The notes under the pieces were generated by a model. The model did no database searches and had not been told where the DNA came from. It worked only from the letters and a program-made list of their open reading frames with translations. From a virus (lineage: Duplodnaviria; Caudoviricetes), in IMG/VR virus record IMGVR_UViG_3300002091_000055, positions 1 to 38,408 of that record: a DNA stretch of 38,408 nt; one strand, 5' to 3'. Positions 812 through 9,217 of the stretch are shown here, piece after piece. The stretch's first letter is position 1. Each line of letters starts with the position of its first letter. A program made the translations under genes and the position numbers.

Positions 812-1190
812 GACAATCCAATCGGGTAATAGATCACTTAAAGGGTAAAACAATGTAAAAAACTAAGGGAGCAATAAACCGTGAGTAACTGCGACAAAGG
901 AGCAGTTACGAACCACTACCCTGCTTCTACGCTCAACGCTCCGAAGCACCAAGCGAAGGAGCAACAGTGAGAGCAGCTCGTCGCTACGCTCCTCACTGCT
1001 CTGTAAAACCCCTCACTATATAAACGGCGTGGAAAACACGACAACACCACGCAACGTTACCAAATTGTTATAAACTATTTTATCGAACCCTTACAAACAC
1101 TGGCCCCAGCAAATAACGAAAAAAATTTGGGGGGACATTATAATACTATTTATCCCGCCGTTTATCATCGTGGGGTCAGCCTATCGTGCG

Positions 1191-1274
1191 CTAGGTTACC
1201 GGTGGGTAACTTACGCTGCCGTAGGTTACGGTTGGGTAACTTACTGTACAGTAGGTTACTGCCAGGTAACTTAG
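1191..1274. repeat. 15-bp-periodic array of GTA(AC/GG)TTAC units separated by 6-nt spacers
   Basis: ctaGGTTAC-cggtgg-GTAACTTAC-gctgcc-GTAGGTTAC-ggttgg-GTAACTTAC-tgtaca-GTAGGTTAC-tgccag-GTAACTTAg. Confidence 0.85.
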
Positions 1275-1364
1275 ATACCAGAACTACACTTCATGTATTC
1301 TAATACAGGTATCCGGAGTTCTGTAATGTAGGTATGTGATGGGCGACACTCTGCCGGTGGGGCT

Positions 1365-1385
1365 TGTGGATAAGGTTGTGGATAA
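1365..1385 (-). promoter_or_regulatory. Two tandem consensus DnaA boxes
   Basis: TGTGGATAA (reverse complement of TTATCCACA) at 1365-1373 and 1377-1385. Confidence 0.7.
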
Positions 1386-1448
1386 CTATTTAGGGTTGTT
1401 TTAGGGTGAGCGTTATCAAACTGTTATCTTTCCAGGCGTGTTTACCTA

Positions 1449-1476
1449 TTGACACCGTTCCCCTGTTGTGTATGCT
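1449..1476 (+). promoter_or_regulatory. Housekeeping-sigma promoter of the early operon
   Basis: TTGACA-16 nt-TATGCT with TGTG just upstream of the -10, about 45 nt before the first early ATG. Confidence 0.7.
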
Positions 1477-1521
1477 TAGGGGTGTCGGGAAAGGTTCCCG
1501 CGTAATGGTTAGGGGTTAGAT

Positions 1522-1803
1522 ATGATGAAACTAGACCCGCGCGCGGTTAGCGCGATTATTCACGCCAAGACGACTAATGACGCGAGCGGTAACCCGCGCC
1601 GGTGTTTCGTTCTGCTCAATGGGGCGGGGCAGGTTCTGGCGGTGACTGATGAGGGTTATTCGGGTGATGGGGCATGGTGGCAGCTGATCCAAGACAGGGC
1701 GGACGGTAGGCACGCCCGCGACGGGGTAGAACCGTCCCCCTTTGCGGTGACCGTTACCCCCGCTGAATACCGTCGCTTGATTCGATGGGACGTAACGGCA
1801 TGA
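1522..1803 (+). CDS. Hypothetical early protein
   Basis: 93 aa ORF, preceded by GGTTAGGGG 6 nt upstream. Confidence 0.75.
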   Translation: MMKLDPRAVSAIIHAKTTNDASGNPRRCFVLLNGAGQVLAVTDEGYSGDGAWWQLIQDRADGRHARDGVEPSPFAVTVTPAEYRRLIRWDVTA

Positions 1804-1964
1804 CGCGCAAACACTTTCAAGCGGTAGCCGACGCCCTGCGGGTTAGCGATGCACCCCCCGACGCGGTTAGGGATATCGCCCTAGCCCTGGCGGATGTATT
1901 CGCGGGGCAGAATCCCCTATTTGATAGGGAGCGATTTTTGACGGCCTGCGGGGTGACACCATGA
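1800..1964 (+). CDS. Small phage protein (MTRKHF...NPLFDRERFLTACG), not in ORF track
   Basis: 54 aa, ATGA overlaps at both ends; resembles the NPxFDxxRFLxACG family of small phage proteins. Confidence 0.75.
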   Translation: MTRKHFQAVADALRVSDAPPDAVRDIALALADVFAGQNPLFDRERFLTACGVTP

Positions 1965-2086
1965 GCTTAGGGACGGGGCTAGGACTTTATGGCTTGTTCA
2001 TGGCGGGCGTTATTGTTGGAACGTCGTGGATCATTGACCGATTCCCTGCCGTGTTTGGTTATGAGGATGAGGGGGTCGAACAATGA
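1961..2086 (+). CDS. Small membrane peptide, not in ORF track
   Basis: 41 aa MSLGTGLGLYGLFMAGVIVGTSWIIDRFP..., ATGA overlaps at both ends. Confidence 0.6.
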   Translation: MSLGTGLGLYGLFMAGVIVGTSWIIDRFPAVFGYEDEGVEQ

Positions 2087-2301
2087 CGCGCCCCCTACGC
2101 CTGACTAGGCGCGGGTGGATTCTGGCAGCAATAGCAGCTCTCGCCCTAGTTTATGGGCTTAGCGTGTTGTTATCGTTCAACCGTGGCCTAGTGCCCTGCG
2201 ATGCGGTGACTTATGACACGCCTAGCACGTTCCCCGCCGGTAGTGCCGGTGCCCGTGCGTTCGATGCGGAGAATGGCGCGGGGGTTATTATCTGCCGTTA
2301 G
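2083..2301 (+). CDS. Small membrane-anchored protein
   Basis: RLTRRG followed by one hydrophobic helix. Confidence 0.7.
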   Translation: MTRPLRLTRRGWILAAIAALALVYGLSVLLSFNRGLVPCDAVTYDTPSTFPAGSAGARAFDAENGAGVIICR

Positions 2302-2394
2302 GCTCTAATCTCGCCCCCTGGCATGATATGGTCAGGGGACGGGGTTACCGGCTAAGGGTTAGCGGGTAGAATCAAATTAGGTTAGGGGTTCACA

Positions 2395-3465
2395 ATGTCA
2401 GACATCACGGCAGCTAGGGCTAGGCAACTATCTAAGGCCCTGGCGATTACTAAGCCATCACGCAATATTAGGGGCGTGAGTGTGATCGAGCTGCACGCCG
2501 ATGCATCGGGGCTAAGGGTGCAGATTAGGGATAGTTCCGGAATGTTCGGTGTAGTCACCTTGACCGATGATCCGCAGCCGGTAGCGATTCATCAACTATC
2601 ACGCGATGCCCTAGCCTTATGGTGTAAGACTCTCAAGGCTAAGGATGCACTATCGGTCACGCTTGACGCGGGTATGGTTAGCCTCTCGCGTAATGGGCTA
2701 GTGACTAGTGGCCTGGCTGCCGATATTGTGGACACGTCGGGACTAATGGACACGTCGGAAATAGGTAACGCCCTTACAGGTATCGCCGTCCCGTGGAATG
2801 AGCTACCTGCCGTGCTATTGGCTGCCGGTGACGATGATTCTCTCCCCGTCCTAACGGCGGTTAGTGTTCGATACGGGGATCAAGGTGTAGCACGCCTAGT
2901 AACTACAGATAGATACCGTATGGTGCTTACCGATGCAAACATTATGCACTATGAGAATCACGCGCTAGTGCCTGCCGCCTGGCTAACTAAGGTGACTAAG
3001 CAACTAGGCGGTGGCTTATTGGCCTTGACCGATAAGCACGCGGTCATTAGTGATCCGGCTAACCCGTTCTGGCTTATGGGAACGCGCCTGCTTGACGGTG
3101 ATTATCCGGTAGTTGATTCTCTAGTACGCGATAGCTCCCCTATCGGGCTAGTGTTTGATTCTTCCGCGCTGCGGGATGCGGTGAAACTAATCGCCCCGTC
3201 TATTGCTAAGAATAATCCGGTGATCGTTGACCTGGTTGCCGGTGTATTACGCACATTAGAGGGTGAAACTACCGTGCCTATTCCCGCCTATTCGGGCGAT
3301 AGTGACGGGCTAGTAATCGGATTCAACCCTGCCTACCTAGTGGATTCTCTCGCCGGTATCACGGGTAGCGTGCGCTTCGACCTAGATTCTGCCGGTAAGC
3401 CCGCTATTATTACTAGTGAATCAACCGCCACGACGCGGGTGCTCATGCCCGTACGCCAACGATAG
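2395..3465 (+). CDS. dnaN: DNA polymerase III beta sliding clamp-like protein
   Basis: Motifs LPVLTAV, LVTTDRYRM, RLLDGDYP, IGFNPAYLVDSL, KPAII and C-terminal VLMPVR match DnaN domains 2-3; 356 aa. Confidence 0.85.
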   Translation: MSDITAARARQLSKALAITKPSRNIRGVSVIELHADASGLRVQIRDSSGMFGVVTLTDDPQPVAIHQLSRDALALWCKTLKAKDALSVTLDAGMVSLSRNGLVTSGLAADIVDTSGLMDTSEIGNALTGIAVPWNELPAVLLAAGDDDSLPVLTAVSVRYGDQGVARLVTTDRYRMVLTDANIMHYENHALVPAAWLTKVTKQLGGGLLALTDKHAVISDPANPFWLMGTRLLDGDYPVVDSLVRDSSPIGLVFDSSALRDAVKLIAPSIAKNNPVIVDLVAGVLRTLEGETTVPIPAYSGDSDGLVIGFNPAYLVDSLAGITGSVRFDLDSAGKPAIITSESTATTRVLMPVRQR

Positions 3466-3476
3466 GGGAATAGATC

Positions 3477-3683
3477 ATGAATCAACGCAATATGGAAGAA
3501 CTTGCTGCCGTATCCTGGGATGCGAAGATGCTACTAAGCCGCCTGGGAACGCTTGATATTATGGTGACTAACGATGCCATGCCTGAGCAGTTACGGGATA
3601 GTCTGATCAATGTAATCGAGAGTGTTGCGCGGTTCACCTATCGGTCAGAGTGGGCACTAGATTCTGACCTCATGGTGGACTAA
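3477..3683 (+). CDS. Hypothetical protein
   Basis: 68 aa ORF with AGGGG RBS. Confidence 0.65.
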   Translation: MNQRNMEELAAVSWDAKMLLSRLGTLDIMVTNDAMPEQLRDSLINVIESVARFTYRSEWALDSDLMVD

Positions 3684-3780
3684 CTGAGGGTGTCGCTGCC
3701 AGGTGATGCCCTAGCCGGTAGGTTAGGGTGTCGCCTAGTGCCGATAGCCGGTGCTAATTAACAATGGTTAGGGGTAATAC

Positions 3781-3954
3781 ATGATTACGCATGAAAGAAT
3801 ACCTTATTCGAACGTCCTGATCCTGAGCTGCACCGTCACCGATGGCTCTATGGTATGGCTTGAAACTAGATCATATCAAGGGTATCCCGTGCGCGAGGCT
3901 AAGAAGATTCACCGCGACTACCTGGCACACAATGGCCTAACTATTGTGGACTAA
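3781..3954 (+). CDS. Hypothetical protein, not in ORF track
   Basis: 57 aa MITHERIPYSNVLILSC...NGLTIVD; GGTTAGGGG 6 nt upstream of the ATG. Confidence 0.7.
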   Translation: MITHERIPYSNVLILSCTVTDGSMVWLETRSYQGYPVREAKKIHRDYLAHNGLTIVD

Positions 3955-4049
3955 TCTAGCGAACTTGCCTGATGTACCGGCTGCGATGCCGGTATGTCGG
4001 GTTGGATCACTAGCATAGGGCTAGAGATACATAATGAAAGGTTAGGACA

Positions 4050-4544
4050 ATGGGATACTACGTTCACATTACATACAGTAATGCAGTAATACCGGCGGAG
4101 AATCTTCCGGCCGCGCTTGATGCGTTGCGTGAGCTTGATGCACGGGATGATCTAAAATCTGGCGGGTCGAGCGCGGGTGCTAAGTGGTTCAGTTGGATGA
4201 ACGACTTTGACCTGGCTAATGCGCCTAGCGTGGCTAGTGTGCTCGAGCGGCTAGGTTTTGATGTATCAGAAGATGAATGGGGTGGATTATCTATTGAGGG
4301 TTATGAGGATAAGACAGGTGATGAGGGAATCTTTATTCAAACATTAGCCCCATACATTGAGACAGGTTCACACGTCGAGTGGCAGGGTGAGGATGGCGAG
4401 GCTTATCGTTGGCACTTTCACCACGGCCTAATGACAACGGAATATGACCGGCGACTACCGTCCTGGCAACATACAGATAACCCTATTGAGGCTCACCTAA
4501 AACTGTCAGCTGTGTTTGCAGCAAACAAGACTAGTTTAGTCTGA
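4050..4544 (+). CDS. Hypothetical acidic protein
   Basis: 164 aa, GAAAGGTTAGGAC upstream. Confidence 0.8.
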   Translation: MGYYVHITYSNAVIPAENLPAALDALRELDARDDLKSGGSSAGAKWFSWMNDFDLANAPSVASVLERLGFDVSEDEWGGLSIEGYEDKTGDEGIFIQTLAPYIETGSHVEWQGEDGEAYRWHFHHGLMTTEYDRRLPSWQHTDNPIEAHLKLSAVFAANKTSLV

Positions 4545-4719
4545 TGCTTGGTGACATCCTTGGCGCGGCGGTGTTCATAGTGCTTGCCGTGGTGTTGCCG
4601 ATAGTGATTCATTATTTGTTTGACTAATCCTAGTGGTTTTGCTTGGTGCCCGTAGTGGGGAAGCTACGGGTATCGGGTTCGGCACTAGGCCGATATCGAA
4701 ACAATGAAAGGTTAGGACT

Positions 4720-4908
4720 ATGAATGCGAAACTAATGATGCACGACTGTCCCACACCTGTGCGGGAAGTCATGATCGAATCGGTCGATGAATGGAACACC
4801 CGCTGGAATAGTGAAATGGTGTTCAAGGTTCTTGATTTGCAAACAGGTATCCGTGTATGCGCTCATGCTAGTGAGCTTTGGCTTGAGGGTGTGAGCTGCA
4901 ATGCCTGA
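4720..4908 (+). CDS. Hypothetical protein
   Basis: 62 aa, GAAAGGTTAGGAC upstream. Confidence 0.7.
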   Translation: MNAKLMMHDCPTPVREVMIESVDEWNTRWNSEMVFKVLDLQTGIRVCAHASELWLEGVSCNA

Positions 4909-5272
4909 ACCCTATGTGGGACACCGTGAAAGCAACAGGGAATGGTGGGATTTTGCTGACTGTGGTGGCCTGAAGCCAACCTGGTGGGATACTGACATTG
5001 GCAAACAAGACCATAACCTGACCATCGAAAACCTTTACGCCATCACGATATGTATTGGCTGCCCTGTACAGAATGAATGCTTAGCCGATGCTTTACGAAA
5101 CGGCGGTGAACATAACATCAGGGCTGGTCTGACACCTTGGAACCAGACTGAACTGATCAACACGGGTTCAACTTATTCACGCCCGTTGAGGGTTTTGAAC
5201 AAACTACTAACATTGACCGATGATGTGAACACGGTGGTGACACAGGCATACGGTGTGCTTGGTGACAAATGA
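4901..5272 (+). CDS. whiB: WhiB-family transcription factor (divergent)
   Basis: WWDFADC...AITICIGCPVQNECLADAL (four Cys) then NIRAGLTP in place of G[IV]WGGLT. Confidence 0.8.
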   Translation: MPEPYVGHRESNREWWDFADCGGLKPTWWDTDIGKQDHNLTIENLYAITICIGCPVQNECLADALRNGGEHNIRAGLTPWNQTELINTGSTYSRPLRVLNKLLTLTDDVNTVVTQAYGVLGDK

Positions 5273-5445
5273 AAGCTGATGAACGTCTTGATGAGTTCAT
5301 GTTCATGCTATCCTTGAAGGAAAGTCCTGAACATATTGCACGCCAGATGGGTGTGCAACTAAAATCCATTGAAAGAATGTGGTATCGAACTAAGAAGGAG
5401 AGGCCACCGTGGGTGCAACAGAGAATGAAATCATTGAACAGCTAA
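5269..5445 (+). CDS. Small helix-turn-helix protein, not in ORF track
   Basis: 58 aa, SPEHIARQMGVQLKSIERMW HTH pattern; ATGA overlap with whiB. Confidence 0.65.
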   Translation: MKADERLDEFMFMLSLKESPEHIARQMGVQLKSIERMWYRTKKERPPWVQQRMKSLNS

Positions 5446-5675
5446 ACAAAGTGTTTGATCCAGAAGATAGACCTTTTACCATTGACAAAGGGCAGGTCAC
5501 GTTTGAAACAACCGATGGTGATACTGCCTGGTTGTTTGAGTACGATGGTCAAGTGTATGCGAGTCTATTCTCTTACCGCGACAACTCCGAAACTTGGTGG
5601 GCTGACGAGCGCGAGGTAGGCCCTTACGGTGATGCGGTTGAGGCCGTCAAACATTTGGCTGGTTGGAATGACTGA
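5409..5675 (+). CDS. Hypothetical protein
   Basis: 88 aa, GTG start with AAGGAGAGG RBS. Confidence 0.7.
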   Translation: MGATENEIIEQLNKVFDPEDRPFTIDKGQVTFETTDGDTAWLFEYDGQVYASLFSYRDNSETWWADEREVGPYGDAVEAVKHLAGWND

Positions 5676-6168
5676 AAATCAAACCGTTCCATCATGGTTG
5701 TTATTGTTGTGTGCCGGTCTTGTGGTGTTGCTGCTTGGTGAAATCCTTGTGTTGAACCGTGAGGATCAGGTGAGGCTACAATCTTTACCTAAAACCATGT
5801 TATCTTCCCAACCTGAAGCACATAAACCACACACAACACACCATCAGAGGGCACACAAGCCCGTTTCACGGTCTTATACCCGCATCCTTAACCTTTCCTC
5901 GCCTGCTAGGCGTTATGCCTTTACATTGGTTCCTGTTGAGCCACAGATGGCTTGCCTGATTATGCTTTGGGATCACGAGTCAGGCTGGAGTCCCACATCA
6001 GACAACCCCACATCGTCTGCCTACGGCATCCCACAAATCTTGGGGCTAAAAGCCAAGACGGGTAACGATTACAAGGCCCAGGTTCGAGCAGGTTTATCGT
6101 ACATCAAACATCGTTATGGTTCACCGTGTTCAGCTTGGGTGTTCTGGCAGAATCACAGGTGGTACTGA
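5668..6168 (+). CDS. Membrane-anchored lytic transglycosylase (SLT-like)
   Basis: N-terminal TM helix; CLIMLWDHESGW...NPTSSAYGIPQ...GLSYIKHRYGSPCSAW; start 5668 preferred over 5629. Confidence 0.85.
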   Translation: MTENQTVPSWLLLLCAGLVVLLLGEILVLNREDQVRLQSLPKTMLSSQPEAHKPHTTHHQRAHKPVSRSYTRILNLSSPARRYAFTLVPVEPQMACLIMLWDHESGWSPTSDNPTSSAYGIPQILGLKAKTGNDYKAQVRAGLSYIKHRYGSPCSAWVFWQNHRWY

Positions 6169-6377
6169 TGGGCTGGTCGTTTGCGCTTGCTGCCGGATCA
6201 ATGACCGGACTATGGATTGCTGGGAAGCGACCCTTGCAAGGCTGGCTAATACTATTGGGCATGGAAGTATTGTGGTGCTGGTACTCGGTAGCCACCAAAC
6301 AGTACGGGCTTGGTGTCCTATGCTTAGCCTACGGAATAATCTACTTTGCCAATACTGTTAGGGAGTTAAAAAAATGA
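6168..6377 (+). CDS. Small multi-pass membrane protein
   Basis: MGWSFALAAG..., three short hydrophobic segments, TGATG overlap with the upstream gene. Confidence 0.7.
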   Translation: MGWSFALAAGSMTGLWIAGKRPLQGWLILLGMEVLWCWYSVATKQYGLGVLCLAYGIIYFANTVRELKK

Positions 6378-7645
6378 AACTAGTTTCCCTATTCGCAGGT
6401 GTAGGTGGCTTTGACATCGCAGCTGAACGGGCAGGTATTGAACCAAGTGTCATGTGTGAAATTGATCCACAAGCAGCAGGTGTTTTGAAACACCGTTTCC
6501 CAAACACAACCCTCATCAACGATGTGAAAGAGGTAACAGGTGACAAACTCAGAGAACTTGGACTTGACCCAAGGGCAACAATTATCACTGGCGGGTTTCC
6601 CTGCCAAGACCTCTCCATTGCAGGAAAGCAAGCAGGACTCGAAGGTGGCGAAAGGTCGTCGCTTTTCTTTGAAATTGTGCGAATCCTGCGGGAGTTCAAT
6701 CCCCAGTGGTTCATCCTTGAAAACGTCCCAGGCTTGCTGTCATCCAAAGGGGGACGGGACATGGGAATCGTCATCGGGAGTTTGGCTGAACTCGGGTACA
6801 GTTTCTCCTGGAGAATCTTGGACGCGCAAAACTTTGGAGTCCCCCAACGTCGCCGTCGTGTCTTCATTGTCGGACATCTTGGAGCCGATGCGACCAGAGC
6901 TGAGCAAGTATTGTTTGAGTCCGAGGGCGGCCGAAGGGATCTTGAGGCGGGCCACGCGCAGGGGAAAGACATTGCCGGAGACCTTGCACAAAGCACTGAC
7001 AGCAATAGTTTCAGGATGTTAGGTTTTGGTGATTACGAACCAGACGACACTGCGTCAGCGTTGAAGGCTCGCGATTACAAGGATGCTACCTACCTCGTTG
7101 TGCCCTACGTGACTTCACGTAGGGCACAAACCGACCAAGACGATGAGACCTGGGTGGAAAGCAACGTCACCCCAACGCTGAACAGGATGGACAACACCGG
7201 CGAATCTCGTGCCACTGTCCTAATGATTGACGGCACACGAGTCGGCGATGTTCGTATCACCGAAGGCCAAACCATGCAGACCGTGATAAGTCGATGGGGT
7301 ACTGGTGGCAACAACGTACCAATGGTTGAGACCAACACGCAACGTATTGATGTTTTTGATAGACAGTTTGGTTCAAATGCACAAGTGTTTAACAATATTT
7401 CTCCTACATTAAAGCATAGTCAGCAGTCACCCTCGGTGGCTTTACCAACAATTGTTCGCCGGTTGACACCAATGGAATGTGAACGGCTGCAAGGATTCCC
7501 CGATGGCTGGTCAGCGCAACGCATAGATCACAAGAAGGGCGTTGTTGTCGATCAAGCTGACTCGTCCAGGTACAAGCAAATGGGCAACGCTGTCGCTGTC
7601 CCTGTCGTTGAATGGATTATGAATCGAATTATGCAACAGTCATAA
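6374..7645 (+). CDS. DNA (cytosine-5)-methyltransferase
   Basis: Motifs I SLFAGVGG, IV GGFPCQDLS, VI ENVPGL, VIII QRRRRVFIVG, IX RRLTPMECERLQGFP, X YKQMGNAV. Confidence 0.95.
   Translation: MKLVSLFAGVGGFDIAAERAGIEPSVMCEIDPQAAGVLKHRFPNTTLINDVKEVTGDKLRELGLDPRATIITGGFPCQDLSIAGKQAGLEGGERSSLFFEIVRILREFNPQWFILENVPGLLSSKGGRDMGIVIGSLAELGYSFSWRILDAQNFGVPQRRRRVFIVGHLGADATRAEQVLFESEGGRRDLEAGHAQGKDIAGDLAQSTDSNSFRMLGFGDYEPDDTASALKARDYKDATYLVVPYVTSRRAQTDQDDETWVESNVTPTLNRMDNTGESRATVLMIDGTRVGDVRITEGQTMQTVISRWGTGGNNVPMVETNTQRIDVFDRQFGSNAQVFNNISPTLKHSQQSPSVALPTIVRRLTPMECERLQGFPDGWSAQRIDHKKGVVVDQADSSRYKQMGNAVAVPVVEWIMNRIMQQS
6540..7022 (+). CDS. Overprinted ORF in the +1 frame of the methyltransferase (beta-polypeptide-like)
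   Basis: 160 open codons; C-terminus SSLSDILE...KYCLSPRAAEGILRRATRRGKTLPETLHKAL looks like real protein; start uncertain. Confidence 0.55.
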   Translation: MTNSENLDLTQGQQLSLAGFPAKTSPLQESKQDSKVAKGRRFSLKLCESCGSSIPSGSSLKTSQACCHPKGDGTWESSSGVWLNSGTVSPGESWTRKTLESPNVAVVSSLSDILEPMRPELSKYCLSPRAAEGILRRATRRGKTLPETLHKALTAIVSGC

Positions 7646-7738
7646 ACTATGCTATTGTTTAATTGTTGCCGGAACTCACCATCCCCCCCGTTGGTGAACC
7701 AACGGCACACCACCCTAATGAGCACGGGGTGGAAGTAC

Positions 7739-7780
7739 AAGACCCGTCAGCTACCCTAACCGGCTGGCGGGTCTTTACTT
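7739..7780 (+). terminator. Terminator-like hairpin between the convergent early and replication operons
   Basis: 14-bp stem AAGACCCGTCAGCT/GGCTGGCGGGTCTT with two G-U pairs, 9-nt loop ACCCTAACC, short T-rich tail. Confidence 0.75.
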
Positions 7781-8465
7781 ATTCAACATCACGTCTGGTT
7801 TGCACCACAGCCTGAGAGTTAGACATCACCCTGCGTGAACCAATACCATCCCAAGGTGTTTCACCACCAGTAAGATCAATGATCCTTTCAATGGCACGAT
7901 CAACACGGGCCTTAAGCGCGTGAACAGTTATTTGCAAGTCTATTGCAGCAAGTTCCTCAGGCATCTCATGCACATACAATAATTGCAAAGCTGCTTGCTG
8001 ATCAGTTGACAGTTTAGGTATGGCTTTAAGAATATCTATTGCCATTGCAGGAAGATTGTTACCGGTGCTTGGCTCCCGTGGTGGTTTACGGCCACCCTCA
8101 GGTTCACCGCGCAAAGTTTCACGCCACGAACCATCAAACACAATGGGCAACAGTTCTCGAATGATACCTTTGTTGAAGAACCATTCATCGGTGTGATGGT
8201 AACCTAATGATTGGGCTTTCATTTTCCGGCAAAATCGTTCACTTTGTTTGTGCATACGTTTGTTCATAATCCAAATGTTTGTTTTAAGAACTTTCGGATC
8301 TTCAACGCTAAGCCACTCATCAACACGCCTATGGTTGTGGTAGCCCCACTCAATCAGATCGGATCGAATATCATCAGCCTCAACATAACCCGAATACTTT
8401 CGGGCAAGACTGATAGCAACAGGGTAAGCGTGCTGCAAATAGTCTGGGTGCAAATGGGTGGTCAT
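7779..8465 (-). CDS. RNA polymerase sigma-70-like factor / sigma region 4 HTH protein
   Basis: Region 2-like AISLARKY...EADDIRSDLIEW; region 4-like LSTDQQAALQLLY...LAAIDLQITVHALKARVDRAIERI. Confidence 0.7.
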   Translation of the reverse strand: MTTHLHPDYLQHAYPVAISLARKYSGYVEADDIRSDLIEWGYHNHRRVDEWLSVEDPKVLKTNIWIMNKRMHKQSERFCRKMKAQSLGYHHTDEWFFNKGIIRELLPIVFDGSWRETLRGEPEGGRKPPREPSTGNNLPAMAIDILKAIPKLSTDQQAALQLLYVHEMPEELAAIDLQITVHALKARVDRAIERIIDLTGGETPWDGIGSRRVMSNSQAVVQTRRDVE

Positions 8466-9217
8466 TTTGCACCACGCATCTCAGTACCACGAAGCTGAGA
8501 CTTACCCTTAGACCATGAACCACAGTCACGGCACTGGTATCTCTGATACACCGCAGTGGTGGTGTATGCCTGACCACGTTTGGTTAGCCTGCTGCCACCA
8601 CAGCGAGGGCAACAGCCCTCAGCCCCACCGTAAAGCTCATGCGATGGGTGGTCTTTGATCCACGAACCGAGCCGGTCATACAGTTTCTCAGTTAATCGAA
8701 CATCTTGGATATTGTATTTTTTCATCAACGCCCAGGCTTTCACGTCACCAGCCATGCACTTGACCCACAGATCGTGCCCTGTGTGCGGTGTCTTTTGTCC
8801 GATACCCAATTGATCGGAAACGTGTTGCAGCTTGTTTGATGGGAAACGGAATTGCGACTTGACCACCTTGAGCAAGTCCACGTTCCTGAACGGGCTTGGC
8901 GGGTTCATACCAGCAAGAATAAATTCTCGCTGAAAATGTTTGATATCAAACGTGACACCATTGTAAGTAACAACAATGTCGGCCTCATCAAGCAACCTAT
9001 GCGCCTGCTTCACCATTTTGGCATGACCATCGTGGTGGTCTGAATAAAACTCTACGTTCCTCTCGCCGTACCACTTAGCGGCGAAAGAGATCATGGACGT
9101 GGTGTCCATCAGTTGCGATAAGGATACGTTCTGCTGCCACAATCCCCAAACGTGAGCTAGGTTTGGACTGGTCTCTATGTCCGTGATTAGGATGCGTGGC
9201 TTGTTTGTTTCCGGCAT
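8462..9217 (-). CDS. RNase H-fold (DEDD) 3'-5' exonuclease with C-terminal zinc ribbon
   Basis: ITDIETSP, TYNGVTFD, YNIQDV; CPRCG...YQCRDCG; start at 9217 (MPETNK) preferred. Confidence 0.85.
   Translation of the reverse strand: MPETNKPRILITDIETSPNLAHVWGLWQQNVSLSQLMDTTSMISFAAKWYGERNVEFYSDHHDGHAKMVKQAHRLLDEADIVVTYNGVTFDIKHFQREFILAGMNPPSPFRNVDLLKVVKSQFRFPSNKLQHVSDQLGIGQKTPHTGHDLWVKCMAGDVKAWALMKKYNIQDVRLTEKLYDRLGSWIKDHPSHELYGGAEGCCPRCGGSRLTKRGQAYTTTAVYQRYQCRDCGSWSKGKSQLRGTEMRGAK

Follow-up and report, generated by a model that had tools for sequence, protein, structure and literature searches.

A predicted three-hairpin small RNA whose loops mirror the start tags of early genes in lake actinophages

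We analysed a complete, actinophage-like virus record of 38,408 bp with direct terminal repeats (the window, which is the whole record) and found a predicted trans-acting small RNA at the end of its early arm. The loops of this RNA would pair with tags at the starts of early genes and block their initiation as a group, a reading to which we give a probability of about 0.63. The plus-strand arm (1522-7645) encodes a beta-clamp-like protein, WhiB, a transglycosylase and a C5 methyltransferase, and the minus strand carries sigma-like, exonuclease, primase, helicase, capsid, portal and terminase genes (Pfam, PHROGs); the host is presumably actinobacterial. The early (plus) and replication (minus) arms converge on a gap of 133 nt, which holds the element:

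7653-7658, plus strand: -10-like hexamer TATTGT with TG upstream, in register with the relatives
7665-7776, plus strand: predicted small RNA of about 112 nt with three hairpins, its 3′ end at a U run, directly next to the stop codon of the convergent gene
7665-7708, plus strand: hairpin P1, two helices with an internal loop
7682-7691, plus strand: loop 1 of P1, UCCCCCCCGU in the window
7710-7732, plus strand: hairpin P2, with loop 2 AAUGAGCAC in the window
7739-7775, plus strand: hairpin P3, terminator-like, its loop 3 complementary to the early start tag
7753-7761, plus strand: loop 3 of P3, ACCCUAACC
7779-8465, minus strand: convergent sigma-70-region-4 (sigma-like) gene, the anchor used for finding relatives

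Using the sigma-like gene as anchor, we collected seven viral and four metagenome loci (L001 to L011). L008 repeats L003, L009 repeats L006, the RNA of L010 is identical to that of L006 and L007 ends short of the gap, which leaves eight distinct element sequences including the window. Core-gene identity is 93% between the window and L001, 78-79% between the window and L004-L006, and 96-98% between L004-L006 and L002/L003. Matches of the sigma-like protein in the phage collection were limited to two unannotated records and the Streptomyces phages Fabian and Stella (26-30%), the former described as a podovirus (PMC9753666). No relative was found in the genome contigs searched with the anchor gene.

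All eight sequences form three hairpins and share the first letters GUYGCCGGAAC. Across them, 98.9% of 188 stem cells are paired and 9 of 24 pairs have changed on both sides, counted on a consensus structure drawn from the same eight sequences and without the inner pairs of P3, which are misaligned. None of 500 shuffles reached this pairing, and slid controls were 35-45% paired. In the window, positions 7665-7782 fold with a z-score of -5.84, and none of 200 shuffles was as stable. The plus strand has the lower fold z-score in eight of eight sequences (-3.9 to -6.7, against -1.7 to -3.6 on the minus strand), with 11 G.U cells and no A.C cell, and in L003 the minimum free energy of the minus strand is slightly lower than that of the plus strand. 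Near-identical phage contigs from two lake runs show zero differences across the gap, so the unusual loop 2 of the window is natural.

The sequence-only reading had described the last hairpin as a 14-bp stem with a 9-nt loop, which was borne out (7739-7752 with 7762-7775, two G.U among the 14 pairs, loop ACCCUAACC), as was a C7 run between TCACCA and TGGTGA, located at 7683-7689. Its second CCCTAA is present at 7713-7718, but lies mostly inside the P2 stem in the window. The TATGCT that it took for a -10 element exists at 7648-7653 but is five bases off-register; the conserved hexamer is TATTGT at 7653-7658. TAnnnT (T34, A35, T39) is invariant in eight of eight sequences despite a differing upstream gene, which is the methyltransferase in the window and L001 and another small ORF in the other relatives. 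TTGAC(A/G) occurs 17-18 nt upstream of the -10 in six of the eight, within the upstream ORF of these relatives, and is absent in the window and L001. The 5′ end of the RNA was placed at 7665 because the conserved -10 is 6 nt upstream, a spacing that suggests a primary 5′ end rather than a processed one. The earlier proposal of a 3′-UTR-derived or independent RNA that masks ribosome-binding sites is partly supported, in that the plus strand is structured and, as described below, the loops co-vary with the tags and pair with early leaders; of its two origins, an own promoter is favoured by the conserved -10 over a purely 3′-UTR one.

On the target side, the early arm has the following features:

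1449-1476, plus strand: candidate early promoter TTGACA-16-TATGCT, by consensus match alone
1507-1514, plus strand: start tag GGTTAGGG, before the gene at 1522
2380-2387, plus strand: start tag before the beta-clamp-like gene (2395-3465), the best predicted target (-9.6 kcal/mol)
3701-3737, plus strand: leader hairpin whose 3′ arm sequesters the 9-nt site at 3721
3766-3773, plus strand: start tag before the gene at 3781
4040-4046, plus strand: start tag GGTTAGG before the gene at 4050, flanked by an AAAGG Shine-Dalgarno-like word and the AUG
4710-4716, plus strand: start tag GGTTAGG before the gene at 4720
6357-6363, plus strand: partial tag GTTAGGG before the C5 methyltransferase gene (6374-7645), predicted to be poorly accessible (-1.0 kcal/mol)

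The early arm has GGTTAGG on the plus strand at 1507, 1865, 2380, 3721, 3766, 4040 and 4710. In the replication/late arm, the sense strand has it once within a gene (32511), besides the loop itself. The start tags have one orientation, lie at the ribosome-binding sites of non-structural genes and reach past the Shine-Dalgarno word, which the nucleotides that pair with the loop overlap or abut. Complementarity to loop 3 extends over 8 nt at 1507, 2380 and 3766 and over 7 nt at 4040 and 4710, as the sequence-only reading had stated. Its 9-nt match at 3721 is there in the letters but is buried in the 3701-3737 stem and belongs to no start site, and its motif list had missed 1865, which is inside a gene, and the GTTAGGG before the methyltransferase start. 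Stems comparable to the 3701-3737 hairpin precede the tags at 2380, 4040 and 4710, and centroid folds leave the last two of these tags unpaired. Ten of the 16 early genes of the window have no loop match, and many of these overlap the preceding gene. Loops 1 and 2 of the window have no complement of at least 6 nt among its 16 leaders. An altered host anti-Shine-Dalgarno sequence was also considered and rejected, since late genes use ordinary AAGGA/GGAG words. A three-codon upstream ORF, AUG AAA GGU UAG, overlaps the tag at 4035-4046 and 4705-4716 and is found in L004-L006 too; it is absent at most other leaders.

We found that loop 3 matches 6 of the 16 window leaders over at least 7 nt, a score reached by a fraction of 0.00003 of all 9-mers and equalled by 2 of 504 permutations of the loop. 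The relatives fall into two tag types: the window, L004 and L006 have GGUUAGG(GG), and L003 and L002 have ACUAGGG plus GGAGCA. In a swap test, which counted leaders with a perfect complement of at least 6 nt to the loop, the window-type loop 3 matched 6/16 leaders in the window, 8/21 in L004, 5/14 in L006 and 0/19 in L003, and the L003-type loop 3 (CUGCUCC) matched 6/19 of its own leaders, at GGAGCA, and none in the window (0/16), L004 (0/21) or L006 (0/14). The partial contigs did not tell the types apart, with 1/7 (L002) and 1/9 (L005) for either loop. A generic anti-Shine-Dalgarno 9-mer matched 1/16 leaders in the window, 4/19 in L003, 0/21 in L004 and 0/14 in L006. In four genomes (the window, L003, L004 and L006) the most frequent leader 6-mer is complementary to a loop. 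L004-L006 have the loop 3 and tag of the window, though their core gene is nearer to that of L002/L003; by these comparisons, loop and tag travel together against the neighbouring core gene.

The other two loops take part as well. Loop 1 is CCCCCUAGU in L001-L003 and UUCCCUAGU in L011, both complementary to ACUAGGG, and loop 2 is (A)ACCCCUAA in L001 and L004-L006, complementary to UUAGGGGU. Loop 2 of L004 matched 11/21 leaders and loop 1 of L003 matched 5/19; loop 1 of L005 had no match among the nine leaders of its partial contig. From its loop 3, L011 is predicted to have GGGGCUAA leaders. The mosaic relative L001 is in part a counter-example and a recombinant of both types: its leaders are mostly L003-type, yet its loops 2 and 3 are window-type. 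Its loop 1 has changed to CCCCCUAGU, which fits its ACUAGGG leaders (5/20), and a loop complement is one of its four tied top leader 6-mers. Its loop 3 matches 2/20 leaders, no better than chance (36 of 280 permutations do equally well), and none of its loops fits the GGAGCA leaders at 1003 and 3259. The co-variation of loop and start motif, whose absence the sequence-only reading had named as refuting it, was found in the switch of loop 3 with the tag, but with a partial fit in L001 and two tag types.

Another of its checks, pairing at all phage starts, was made with a simplified seed-plus-accessibility model, other than IntaRNA, with a cut-off of ≤ -6 kcal/mol, and pairing was predicted for early leaders and not for others. 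The window RNA was predicted to pair with 4/16 early and 0/34 other starts and the L003 RNA with 8/19 early and 2/33 other starts, while crossed pairs of RNA and leaders between the window and L003 gave 0/19 and 0/16. Cross-talk was predicted on L004 leaders for the L003 RNA (7/21) and the L011 RNA (12/21). The p-values of 1e-4 and 1.4e-6 from this model overstate independence, because the leaders, as cassette copies, are related to each other, the RNA and its tags sit in linkage on a single arm and the lake clade has only two testable tag types, so that the independent events are few. The starts for the swap, permutation and pairing tests were hand-picked after the motifs were known. When 172 strands were scanned blind, with ORFs called automatically, the element was recovered in the window, L003, L004 and L006 and missed in L001; the other strong match was Streptomyces phage Fabian. 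Five further hairpins of the scan (twice on the minus strand of the window, and in L109, L112 and L184), with motifs in 4-5 leaders, were taken as chance.

Searches beyond the close relatives placed the element in no known family. The Rfam search of window positions 1000-9000 with E up to 5 returned only a 21-bit chance match to HTH-XRE elsewhere. The exact hairpin pattern had no match in viral contigs. The P1 pattern had 87, and among the matches listed only the six known relatives were real; a stricter P1 pattern returned the same six. A covariance model (R1) found its eight training sequences and L010, with weak opposite-strand echoes in 25 sources, and no homologue in 73 more distant loci. 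Among anti-tag loops in L104, L105, L107 and OX376641, none was convincing on the tag strand (one unconvincing match). The distant relatives L105, L107 and L119 have repeated early start words of their own (GAGAGGA; ACAGGAG), and no mirror loop for them was found in the sequence parts searched.

The early genes look like cassettes that have been swapped at their repeated leaders. Lake contigs on the early arm break or jump at leaders, some of the joints having short sides (21 nt). These places include a jump from 2363 to 1504, 420 additional nucleotides flanked by two copies of the 3725-3775 leader, a different sequence following the ATG at 2395 and an insertion at 4720-4723. Gene sets differ among the relatives, and L004 has two 60-nt leader repeats. 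Shuffling of the leaders as cassettes would account for the likeness of the tags, but not for a loop that mirrors them.

The c4 antisense RNA of phages P1 and P7 is an RNase P-processed RNA of lysogenic immunity with a single target region, icd/ant, and the CI RNA of phage P4 is likened to it. The loops of c4 pair with its own message and occlude the ribosome-binding site, and variable loops set the specificity (PMC5320573). Like c4 as described there, the element is phage-encoded, has three stem-loops and variable loops directed at ribosome-binding sites, and its loops are, by their letters, complementary to the phage's own ribosome-binding region and co-vary with it. In contrast to c4, it apparently addresses 6-11 cassette genes through a shared tag, and both a promoter and a terminator-like 3′ end of its own are predicted. 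The proteins scanned (45 with Pfam, 26 with PHROGs), a subset of all ORFs, gave no match to an integrase or repressor family. It does not match the Rfam C4 model. The 6C small RNA, which comes from the likely host phylum, Actinobacteria, is likewise multi-hairpin with C-rich loops, reported to bind several mRNAs without a chaperone (PMC6486639). 6C is host-encoded with conserved C-run loops, whereas the loops of the element are phage-specific, vary and track a private tag, and the Rfam 6C model is not matched. The element is thus, in its predicted function, like c4 and 6C and belongs to neither family; what makes it notable is the private tag through which it would address a whole swappable gene set.

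The tags themselves resemble the start-associated sequences (SAS) of cluster K mycobacteriophages, conserved ribosome-binding-site tags of non-structural genes that extend past the Shine-Dalgarno word, whose role was stated to be unknown in 2011 and was still ill-defined in 2024 (PMC3203893, PMC11373665); start-associated sequences are described in Microbacterium cluster EF likewise (PMC7302621). In contrast to SAS, the tags here are GGTTAGG(GG), ACTAGGG and GGAGCA, of unrelated sequence and without the cluster K 13-bp consensus, and no antisense RNA is named for SAS in the parts of these three papers that we consulted. The PeSL of T4-type phages are described as promoter-terminator stem-loop cassettes that shuffle small non-essential genes (PMC2839356). 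Repeated stem-loop cassettes with gene gain and loss are shared with the leader joints described above; PeSL, however, are promoter-terminator units for which the portion of that source consulted names no trans-acting RNA as reader. Here, stem-loops lie at the leaders and promoter-consensus sites show no excess (10 found, 9.0 in shuffles), with one weak match at a tag (3758-3785). Very few phage regulatory RNAs are said to have been described so far (bioRxiv 10.1101/2024.10.31.621285), and we found no description of a tag-mirroring phage RNA in the open-licence literature searched.

Two groups of cultured phages have a comparable layout:

L112:14812-14912 (Fabian MN284894, gp73-gp72 gap), also L196-L201, minus strand: long hairpin of cluster BF, whose loop CUCUCUCCC mirrors the early tag GGGAGAGAG
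L202:30615-30715 (Adephagia JF704105, about 58,615-58,715), also L203 and L206-L210: cluster K1 hairpin with a reversed SAS, loop CCUCCUAUCC

In Fabian, GGGAGA is found in 11 leaders, and a hairpin with the loop UGCCUCUCUCCC lies just downstream of the early cassette array. This loop is kept in all seven cluster BF phages checked, from three genera, and being invariant it gives no co-variation. All 165 stem cells are paired and 6 of 25 pairs are compensatory. Among BF leaders the loop matches 11/21, 10/16 and 9/15, against 0-2 per lake phage, and model R1 detected no homology between the BF hairpin and the lake element. One strand at the base of the BF hairpin also belongs to a small hairpin upstream, and the base lies directly against the Shine-Dalgarno word of the next gene; a cis role is possible, as the hairpin leads into the start of the downstream gene. 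For cluster K1, one reversed SAS away from gene starts has been reported in four mycobacteriophages (PMC3203893). In Adephagia and Anaya, we found the sole reversed copy in a long hairpin between genes, of which it forms the loop, CCUCCUAUCC. Peanam, Amelie and LastHope retain the loop, and DarthP has an altered form of it. Pixie and Hurricane have the equivalent hairpin but lack this loop, and it is missing too from the part of TM4 examined. The region has matches in 146 phage records, and part of the loop is plain anti-Shine-Dalgarno. A wider proposal, to which we give slightly less than an even chance, is that lake actinophages, BF podophages and K1 mycobacteriophages all have address-tag regulons, in which a private ribosome-binding-site tag marks exchangeable early cassettes and one small RNA, unrelated between the groups, shuts the set off; this would explain SAS.

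For the lake phages, a host sigma-A-type promoter with read-through ending at P3 would yield the RNA, and its G-C-rich loops would pair over 6-8 nt with the tags, chaperone-free as reported for 6C (PMC6486639). Since the tag reaches into or borders on the Shine-Dalgarno word, pairing would be repressive; ribosome loading would be blocked and translation of the early genes damped as a group. With the RNA encoded at the distal end of the early arm and having to build up first, repression may be delayed and the early proteins confined to a pulse, in the manner of the timer that the sequence-only reading proposed. The same pairing might instead serve to silence superinfecting kin or to hold a dormant or carrier state, the divergence marking immunity groups. 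We consider this purpose unlikely, although loops and tags have diverged between phages that are 96-98% identical in the core gene, window- and L003-type RNAs share two lake runs (X3, X6), L001 recombines both, a host-type promoter would be active at once and the c4 immunity RNA, with its specificity in variable loops, is a precedent (PMC5320573); against it are the absence of integrase and repressor matches in the scanned proteins (45 with Pfam, 26 with PHROGs), cross-talk through loop 1, which blurs the groups, and the invariance of the BF analogue across three genera.

Damping of early genes by pairing also has to be weighed against readings in which the RNA does something else. The element lies between convergent operons, P3 in the relatives has a U tract on one side and an A tract on the other, and loop 1 of the window is a plain C7, as might be expected of a bidirectional terminator with generic C-rich loops that are host-directed, like those of 6C, or idle, the match to the tags being incidental. 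A terminator needs no P1, P2, upstream -10 or variable loops of 7-13 nt, however, and the loops fit letters outside the Shine-Dalgarno word (GGUUA, ACUA, GCA) and switch with the tag, while a generic anti-Shine-Dalgarno sequence fits few leaders; we hold this reading to be quite improbable. More improbable again, if slightly, is that pairing activates or stabilises early messages or directs their processing, for which the strong hairpins upstream in the leaders could be signals: the nucleotides that would pair lie partly in, or directly beside, the Shine-Dalgarno word, and the unpaired tags at 4040 and 4710 leave little to open. The minus strand is able to fold as well (z of -1.7 to -3.6), matches the model weakly and in L003 has the slightly lower free energy. 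It might display the tag and so act as decoy to a protein that binds the tag, or the tag might be a DNA site; the 11 G.U cells of the plus strand would be mismatches on the minus strand, and the conserved -10 and U run point to the plus strand, which makes this very improbable.

If damping by a tag-addressed RNA is right, the early programme is ended by one RNA instead of a protein, and, with early genes exchanged as cassettes at leaders, a gene swapped into the early arm joins the same switch. The function of SAS becomes directly testable, as the same layout occurs in cultured phages (cluster BF; Adephagia), and orthogonal pairs of loop and tag might serve as translation switches in Actinobacteria.

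The early arm has further features. Its word usage at 1500-4720 is skewed, with CTAG at 10.6 per kb against 1.3 per kb elsewhere, CGCG at 8.4 against 1.3, and AATT, TTAA, GTAC, CCAA and CAAA depleted, which is possibly restriction-site avoidance in the DNA that enters first. Upstream of the early promoter, at 1187-1276, there are three tandem 30-nt copies with a GGTTAC-n-GGTAAC inverted motif, a candidate protein-binding or origin/end region. The methyltransferase gene contains in another frame a 160-aa ORF (6540-7022, plus strand), which is open in L001 too, and its variable part holds a perfect 15-bp inverted repeat with a 2-nt spacer at 7098-7129.
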